A DNA stretch of 64,000 nucleotides from Escherichia coli (GCF_003334785.1 NZ_QOWV01000007.1); one strand, 5' to 3'; counted from the stretch's first letter, positions 13,247-14,860 are shown. The notes: a model not told the origin generated them from the letters alone. A program made the numbers and translations.

Positions 13247-13627
13247 ATGATTCGCACGATGCTGCAGGGCAAACTCCACCGCGTGAAAGTGACTCATGCG
13301 GACCTGCACTATGAAGGTTCTTGCGCCATTGACCAGGATTTTCTTGACGCAGCCGGTATTCTCGAAAACGAAGCCATTGATATCTGGAATGTCACCAACG
13401 GCAAGCGTTTCTCCACTTATGCCATCGCGGCAGAACGCGGTTCGAGAATTATTTCTGTTAACGGTGCGGCGGCCCACTGCGCCAGTGTCGGCGATATTGT
13501 CATCATCGCCAGCTTCGTTACCATGCCAGATGAAGAAGCTCGCACCTGGCGACCCAACGTCGCCTATTTTGAAGGCGACAATGAAATGAAACGTACCGCG
13601 AAAGCGATTCCGGTACAGGTTGCTTGA
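13247..13627 (+). CDS. panD: Aspartate 1-decarboxylase proenzyme (pyruvoyl-dependent)
   Basis: 126 aa; self-cleavage site Gly24-Ser25 (HYEGSCAID) present. Confidence 0.95.
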
Positions 13628-13630
13628 TTG

Positions 13631-14860
13631 TTATCCCTGCGGCTGGTTACTCACCAGCCGCGACATCGTCTCCAGCGAATCCGTTCTTAAGATATAAAGT
13701 CGTTTTAGTAACAACGGATTATCCCCCGGTTTTACTTTGCCTTTCATGGTTGTCACCGCCAGGTGAAATCCGGCATCGTTTGCTGCCTTCACGGCGTTGT
13801 CATTAAATCCGCCAAACGGATACGAAAGATACCAGACATGCGGATTAAATTGCGCCAGAGCGCGGCGTGAACGTGCAAAATCAAACAGAATATTGTGCTC
13901 ACTACGGCTCAGTAATATGGGTCGGCGATAACCATCTACCCGATGCAAAAAATGGGTATGTGACTGGAAATCAAATACATCGCGAATTTCGTTAAGCTCA
14001 GAAACGCTCATAAATTGCAGCGATTTTGGGTTCCACTTCTGCGGGTGACGTTTGATGCGTGAGGTAACAATAAACGCCGTCGCCTTCATGCCATATTGTT
14101 TCAACACAGGATACGCATAGCGGCTCACCGACTTGAGGCCATCATCAAAGGTAATCACCACCGCTCGCGCAGGGAGATTGATCTTATTCTTCACGTAGCC
14201 TTCCAGCTGCACCATGCTCAGTGTCGCGTATCCCCTGTCACGCAGCCAGGCCATCTGGTTATTGAAAGCGCGTACCGATGTGGTCGTCGAAGTATGGCGA
14301 AAACGGGTGTTTTCTTCGTCGCGCAGAATATGGTGATAGGTTAGCACCGACAGGCCATTATCGGGTTGGGCATCCAGTGCGCTGATATAGGCCAGTCGAT
14401 CGCCAATACGGATCTGATACCAGGTTTGATTTAACCTGTCTTTCAGTTTATGCAAAATCGGGTAGCGCAAATTGTCCGCCAGTACCCCAAATGGCGCACT
14501 TCCCGCACTCGGCGCGTTATAGACCGGCGTATCTTTCCAGGTAACTAAGTTCTGATTACTCAGCGGCTTGTTGAGGTCGCCCAAACCGTCTTCAACTTTT
14601 TGTCGCCCCTGAACCGGCTCGAGATGACCTTTATCGATAAAACCTTTGCCAAAGCCAAAATTAAATGCGTAATAACTTGCGGCAGTGGGCTCCACGGCAA
14701 TGATTTGTCCGGCCCGAATATTCCCCACGGTCACCATCTTGTCACCAATTTGCGCCCAGACCGCAGCATTTTCGATGGTTTGCATATAACGGGCAGGTAA
14801 CGCGGCACTGACACTTGCGGTAAACAGCATCAGCAGGAGAATAACAGCTTGTTTGTACAT
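13631..14860 (-). CDS. yadE: Secreted polysaccharide deacetylase-like protein (NodB-type domain)
   Basis: 409 aa with N-terminal signal peptide; stop codon lies 3 bp from the convergent panD stop. Confidence 0.85.

Follow-up and report, generated by a model that had tools for sequence, protein, structure and literature searches.

Rho-dependent transcripts with precise 3' ends just past stable stem-loops without U-tracts, protected against PNPase/RNase II and with rut sites downstream, were described by Dar & Sorek 2018. Overlapping convergent transcripts have been catalogued as excludons: in the ExcludonFinder report (Sanmartin et al. 2025 NAR; PMC12288877), yadE-panD is itself one of 165 convergent excludons of MG1655 that were called in 50% or more of the 58 RNA-seq samples, and 146 of the 165 convergent pairs have predicted terminators inside the neighbour's transcription unit. 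A further arrangement is the overlapping bidirectional terminator (Ju et al. 2019; Wang et al. bioRxiv 10.1101/2022.10.23.513370), which is Rho-independent and yields 3' ends for both genes.

Here, these systems are compared with the convergent genes panD and yadE in a stretch of 64,000 nucleotides of Escherichia coli DNA (hereafter the window, with positions counted from its first letter). The junction as such is an ordinary, annotated tail-to-tail arrangement of E. coli, so the preliminary description of it adds little, and both the position of the panD 3' end inside yadE (2021) and the excludon status of the pair (2025) are already published. The modest added value of our analysis is comparative, i.e. 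a hairpin at the 3' end of panD is encoded within the yadE ORF, where it is clearly selected at synonymous sites.

Geometry of the panD/yadE junction

The two genes and their spacer lie in the window as follows:

13247..13627, + strand: panD CDS (aspartate 1-decarboxylase), stop TGA at 13625-13627; from the sequence, ORF list, RefSeq and NCBIfam
13628..13630, no strand: spacer TTG of 3 bp between both stops; from the sequence and RefSeq
13631..14860, - strand: yadE CDS (polysaccharide deacetylase family, with signal peptide), stop TAA at 13631-13633, i.e. TTA on the + strand

The preliminary description had the genes converging with their stops 3 bp apart, and this is confirmed by the sequence, the ORF list and the RefSeq annotations of an identical strain and of MG1655 (yadE 145081..146310 on the + strand, panD 146314..146694 on the - strand), in both of which the gene ends are those of the window. 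Several E. coli strains are 100% identical to window 13000-15000. PanD matches TIGR00223 with 228 bits at a cutoff of 106, and YadE has a polysaccharide-deacetylase fold with a PgaB/IcaB-like deacetylase domain (both NCBIfam). The N-terminus of YadE (window 14786-14860) reads as a signal peptide without a lipobox cysteine; the label in MG1655 is 'putative ... lipoprotein', and YadE resembles secreted or periplasmic proteins more than lipoproteins.

The junction was found in 5,424 of 5,426 complete E. coli genomes, and a 94.7%-identical variant of it keeps the 3-bp spacing. As a measure of how frequent such a geometry is, a sample of the MG1655 annotation (5 x 50 kb, i.e. 250 kb) holds 34 convergent CDS-CDS pairs, eight of which (24%) have stops at most 3 bp apart or overlapping (negative spacing):

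yadE-panD: stop spacing 3 bp
cueR-ybbJ: stop spacing 0 bp
zapC-ycbX: stop spacing -4 bp
sxy-yccS: stop spacing -38 bp
yccX-tusE: stop spacing -4 bp
yedP-dgcQ: stop spacing -4 bp
yedA-vsr: stop spacing -12 bp
yqfG-yqfH: stop spacing -4 bp

Tight tail-to-tail geometry is common in E. coli, at about 1 in 5 convergent pairs, and panD/yadE is therefore no surprise to a specialist.

In E. coli TB354, an IS1 (locus L084, 1730-2509; corresponding to window 13622-13630) sits exactly at the panD/yadE junction and leaves both ORFs intact, with a 9-bp target-site duplication, GCTTGATTG, that covers the 3-bp spacer. It is the sole junction split by IS1 that was noticed among the 5,426 genomes, and the strain offers a natural 'separated' control for any effect of the panD/yadE overlap. 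In E. coli JX21CE35, an IS1B insertion splits yadE itself, which is annotated as two deacetylase fragments; yadE is therefore dispensable in at least some strains.

The 3' ends of panD and yadE

Published 3'-end data for MG1655 were placed on the window by the conversion window x = 159941 - MG1655 coordinate, which was checked against the MG1655 annotation. In the Term-seq data of Adams et al. 2021 (PMC7815308, Supplementary file 1), the dominant panD 3' end lies at MG1655 146275 on the minus strand and carries the classes 'primary' (panD) and 'antisense' (yadE) in LB 0.4, LB 2.0 and M63; in LB at OD 0.4 it is covered by 125,366 reads, the ends of can and hpt having 281,346 and 1,247, respectively. 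Supplementary file 2 of the same study gives a Rho termination region antisense to yadE with a peak at MG1655 145798(-), i.e. ~window 14143, where the upstream/downstream counts are 214/27 without BCM and 412/373 with BCM; its Rho score of 7.18 (p 8e-27) stems from windows of ~800 nt and thus denotes a region, not an exact end. Together with the hairpin found just upstream of the mapped end and a weak candidate on the other strand, this gives the following features:

13638..13662, + strand: GC-rich hairpin of 10 bp in yadE codons -10 to -2, starting 10 nt past the panD stop, no U-tract
13666, + strand: dominant panD mRNA 3' end, 4 nt past the hairpin stem, which puts it 39 nt beyond the panD stop and 36 nt inside yadE
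13667..14143, + strand: untranslated panD read-through antisense to yadE (Rho region, PMC7815308)
13581..13616, - strand: candidate weak yadE terminator in the last panD codons, with a hairpin at 13593-13616 (-9.7 kcal/mol) and a U-rich tail at 13581-13592

The hairpin, UGCGGCUGGU-UACUC-ACCAGCCGCG, consists of nine Watson-Crick pairs, one G.U pair and a 5-nt loop at about -18 kcal/mol, and folds about equally well on either strand (-18.1 and -19.5 kcal/mol). Read as yadE, it is TCG CGG CTG GTG AGT AAC CAG CCG CAG, i.e. S R L V S N Q P Q. The sequence past the stem, ACAUCGUCUCC, has only 3 U in its first 8 nt, short of the U-tract of a canonical intrinsic terminator, and the intrinsic-terminator scan did not call the hairpin. 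An Rfam scan of 12900-15000 gave chance matches only, and the hairpin is in no Rfam family. Therefore, the claim that the junction leaves no room for a terminator is true of the 3-bp spacer but misleading, as the panD 3'-end hairpin sits in the last codons of yadE, where it is under selection; this element lies in the partner's ORF because there is no intergenic space.

Canonical intrinsic terminators at the junction were considered and rejected, since the scan gave only weak sites within panD, i.e. 13548-13564 (+), which is upstream of the panD stop, and 13608-13595 (-), neither of which explains the mapped panD end. Also inside panD, an 8-bp inverted repeat, GTCGCC...GGCGAC (window 13558-13580; codons VAYFEGD), folds on both strands at about -12 kcal/mol and is present in many genera.

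The end at 13666 probably arises when Rho terminates transcription within the region antisense to yadE and exonucleases then shorten the RNA up to the hairpin at 13638-13662. RNA polymerase on panD would run past the stop codon, where the ribosome departs; Rho would then be recruited by the untranslated RNA antisense to yadE and would terminate transcription within a few hundred nt, after which 3'-to-5' exonucleases would trim the RNA up to the hairpin and leave the stable end at 13666. This agrees with the features of Rho-dependent 3' ends, in that a stable stem-loop lies just upstream of a precise end, a uridine-rich tract is lacking and read-through rises when Rho is inhibited by bicyclomycin, the latter at region level. 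Rut sites are C-rich and G-poor; here, C exceeds G by a factor of 1.53 in 13628-13727, and the ratio is ~1 further downstream, i.e. the C>G bias is modest. From these data we infer the order of events, Rho first and trimming second. With its 3' end at 13666, each mature panD mRNA overlaps yadE by 36 nt, and nascent ones overlap it by more.

The Rho peak lies ~480 nt downstream of the 13666 end, which the Rho score does not prove to be Rho-derived. Considering that the resolution of this score is ~800 nt and that the C>G bias is modest, it is possible that the hairpin pauses or ends transcription directly, as a non-canonical intrinsic or a collision-type terminator. After the model of Ju et al. 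2019 and Wang et al. 2022, the hairpin would act as a pause/collision 'overlapping bidirectional terminator' and halt both polymerases without Rho. Its position at a convergent boundary, the lack of intrinsic-terminator features and the near-equal folding on both strands are compatible with such a role, which we nevertheless regard as unlikely: the read-through antisense to yadE is strongly BCM-sensitive (PMC7815308), no yadE 3' end flanks the hairpin in the Term-seq table searched (PMC7815308), and on the yadE strand the hairpin precedes the stop codon, so that ends formed there would be those of non-stop mRNAs. Moreover, yadE expression per kb is ~13-fold below that of panD, and collisions should therefore be infrequent. 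Rho termination with subsequent trimming thus remains our preferred account of the panD end.

On sequence grounds, the 3-bp spacer means that yadE transcripts must run into antisense panD. The Term-seq table of Adams 2021 that was searched contains no 'primary' 3' end of yadE (PMC7815308), and the SMRT-Cappable-seq supplements mention neither panD nor yadE. A conserved yadE terminator within panD was rejected, because the candidate hairpin at 13593-13616 is not maintained across genera and the PanD C-terminus explains the conservation of the sequence. The preliminary description had transcripts of each gene entering the coding sequence of the other and had proposed 3'-end mapping and strand-specific RNA-seq as checks. 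Such data were already in the literature and bear out the panD half, the Term-seq end being 36 nt inside yadE and the Rho region ~0.5 kb further; the yadE half is an expectation from the geometry, the Term-seq table listing no end for this gene. The pair does show the overlapping convergent transcripts that define an excludon, the yadE side consisting of RNA-seq coverage only.

Beyond mere overlap, panD and yadE might form a functional excludon, in which their 3' regions pair as dsRNA and/or the polymerases collide, leading to a mutual, RNase III-dependent lowering of both mRNAs. The overlap called in at least half of the RNA-seq samples (PMC12288877) and the panD 3' end inside yadE (PMC7815308) speak for it, as do two observations in Huang et al. 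2020 (PMC7373196), i.e. yadE antisense reads at ~30-40% of sense (10.9 vs 31.1 RPM) and p19-captured yadE dsRNA at 137-283 RPM in four of six data sets. The rnc mutants in the same source do not suggest such an effect. Sense/antisense RPM of yadE were 31.1/10.9 in the WT, 22.8/6.6 in rnc-14 and 24.4/10.5 in rnc-38, and those of panD were 127.6/5.3, 82.9/1.4 and 122.3/6.0, respectively, all from single data sets; neither mRNA was thus higher than in the WT in total RNA of either mutant. Among the p19-captured duplexes covered here, none lies between 145143 and 147944, a range that includes the junction. In addition, the stable overlap spans just 36 nt that fold into a hairpin, and the shared metabolic pathway claimed for the pair in PMC12288877 is unsupported by any known YadE function. 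Mutual regulation of this kind therefore seems improbable.

Antisense reads over yadE are compatible with read-through from panD. The only yadE duplex among those covered from PMC7373196 maps to MG1655 145120-145143 (window about 14798-14821), near the 5' end of the gene, and suggests antisense RNA that extends up to the yadE start or originates close to it.

Conservation of the hairpin and turnover of its neighbours

The comparative set comprised 80 yadE loci from Enterobacteriaceae, one genome per species, and the last 19 yadE codons of 78 sequences were aligned in panD sense. Across these 78 sequences, 95.5% of the cells of an 11-pair helix are canonically paired, compared with 20-53% in slid controls. 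Four helix pairs show changes on both sides (25 cells), and the observed covariation score was reached by none of 500 column shuffles. Paired changes can be synonymous, as where CGG/CCG of Arg/Pro becomes AGG/CCT or CTG/CAG of Leu/Gln becomes TTA/CAA. The change of CTG/CAG to CGG/CCG in Superficieibacter replaces L by R and Q by P and keeps the pairing.

The codons of the stem hardly vary among the 62 distinct short-gap sequences (Ser TCG 57/59, Arg CGG 62/62, Leu CTG 60/61, Gln CAG 62/62, Pro CCG 62/62), whereas the three loop codons are free to vary and another yadE Arg position uses six codons in the same sequences. Third-position entropy of the five stem codons has a mean of 0.067, as opposed to a median of 1.07, and none of 110 windows of the same pattern in the last 300 yadE codons falls below 0.51. 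By these measures, the hairpin is clearly under selection at synonymous sites.

One might object that the hairpin has no RNA function at all, and that its conservation comes from the YadE C-terminus, from codon usage or from a role at the DNA level (e.g. as a recombination breakpoint), with the end at 13666 being incidental. Indeed, conservation is high in the C-terminal peptide SRL(I/V)SNQPQG, and the gene that meets this site varies from species to species. Nonetheless, third positions that are invariant in CGG, CAG and CCG (each 62/62) go beyond protein constraint, as shown by the six codons at the other Arg; the paired synonymous changes and the double change of L to R and Q to P retain the helix; and the mapped 3' end falls exactly 4 nt past the stem. 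Taken together, these points make an absence of RNA function very hard to credit.

As to the strand concerned, wobble pairs valid in panD sense only outnumber those valid in yadE sense only by 148 vs 8 overall and by 30 vs 8 in the inner nine pairs. This asymmetry favours the panD sense, and with it speaks against a terminator for both polymerases, but it has supporting weight only, since much of it stems from two terminal pairs whose positions are amino-acid-constrained. We infer that selection acts on the panD-sense RNA.

The distance between the two stops differs among genera, with 3 bp in Escherichia, 5-6 bp in Citrobacter and Salmonella, 1-6 bp in Enterobacter, Lelliottia and Leclercia, 32-35 bp in Kluyvera and 53-309 bp in Buttiauxella, Cedecea, Phytobacter and Kosakonia. 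Grouped by gap and partner, the mean hairpin energies are:

panD as partner, gap at most 10 bp (n=47): -17.6 kcal/mol
partner other than panD, gap 0-6 bp (n=16): -17.0 kcal/mol
Kluyvera, gap 32-35 bp (n=5): -11.3 kcal/mol
gap above 50 bp (n=10): -6.3 kcal/mol

Phylogeny is a partial confounder of this relation between gap and hairpin strength, because the genera with long gaps are also the most distant. The longer spacers hold strong hairpins of their own (-19 to -65 kcal/mol), among them a textbook bidirectional terminator in Buttiauxella noackiae. The pattern is as expected if the embedded hairpin replaced an intergenic terminator and the spacer, now useless, was then deleted: with the hairpin supplying the 3'-end function, the spacer would have become dispensable and shrunk to 0-6 bp in Escherichia, Citrobacter, Salmonella and Enterobacter.

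Not all species have panD next to yadE: it lies elsewhere in 17 of the 80, and 16 of these loci could be scored (~20% of species, including several Enterobacter and Citrobacter). There, yadE converges on another ORF of ~360-420 aa with a gap of 0-6 bp, which is a StkG-like fimbrial adhesin gene in both loci checked. Examples of these junctions are:

L032, 3746-3751: junction of yadE with a partner other than panD
L005, 3728-3735: junction of yadE with a partner other than panD

At these junctions the hairpin is kept in 15 of 16 cases and weakened in the remaining one (L010, -11.6 kcal/mol). Since different partners abut the yadE stop in different species, the junction is a recurrent rearrangement boundary. 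Tentatively, and with slightly more doubt than confidence, we suggest that the C-terminal codons of yadE may be a dual-coding module, in which an RNA hairpin is selected on behalf of whichever gene converges and dictates YadE codons, and even amino acids; as no intergenic terminator would be needed, various partners could dock 0-6 bp from the yadE stop.

Copies of panD also occur on plasmids, with 61 matches on E. coli plasmids. In the one copy that was examined, on pBEC1-S17-ESBL-09_1 (locus L089, 3843-4813), panD has an rpnC remnant upstream and lies near IS and integrase debris; a 186-nt 3' fragment of yadE is present, in which the stop codon is mutated and the hairpin matches that of the chromosome exactly.

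Relation to known convergent systems

The pair yadE-panD is on the excludon list (PMC12288877), but the concept implies mutually exclusive expression, through interference or RNase III, which the rnc data for panD/yadE do not suggest. With the overlapping bidirectional terminators of Ju et al. 2019 and Wang et al. (10.1101/2022.10.23.513370), the junction has in common a hairpin without canonical intrinsic features at a convergent boundary. However, those terminators are Rho-independent and set the 3' ends of both genes, whereas read-through at panD/yadE is BCM-sensitive and the panD end alone is mapped.

A useful local contrast is provided by can/hpt (window 17933-17974), which is likewise a convergent pair and whose mapped 3' ends, at 17968 (+) and 17938 (-), overlap by 31 nt (PMC7815308). 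Unlike panD/yadE, it has a 40-bp spacer with a canonical bidirectional terminator, i.e. a hairpin between runs of A and T, and neither transcript enters the ORF of the partner.

On the other side of panD, rpnC (yadD) occupies the opposite strand between the two pan genes panC and panD and converges on panC, the gap being 73 bp (window 11997-12071). The rpnC-panC pair is also among the 165 convergent excludons (PMC12288877), and a strong Rho region lies antisense inside rpnC (MG1655 147624, minus strand; window about 12317; Rho score 16.9; PMC7815308), indicating that panC read-through is Rho-terminated there.

For annotators, the lesson of panD/yadE is that absent intergenic space does not equal an absent terminator. 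The pair shows cleanly, in a natural setting, an mRNA-end element that constrains the coding sequence of a neighbour, and is a simple test bed for asking whether ORF-embedded stem-loops stabilise Rho-terminated mRNAs. It resembles the class of Dar & Sorek 2018 in that the panD end lies a few nt past a GC-rich stem-loop without U-tract, with a Rho-sensitive region just downstream. It differs from that class in that the stem-loop is located not in an untranslated region but in the last codons of a convergent gene, where it constrains the C-terminal codons of that protein. The panD stem-loop is therefore a known kind of element in a position that is unusual but not unprecedented.
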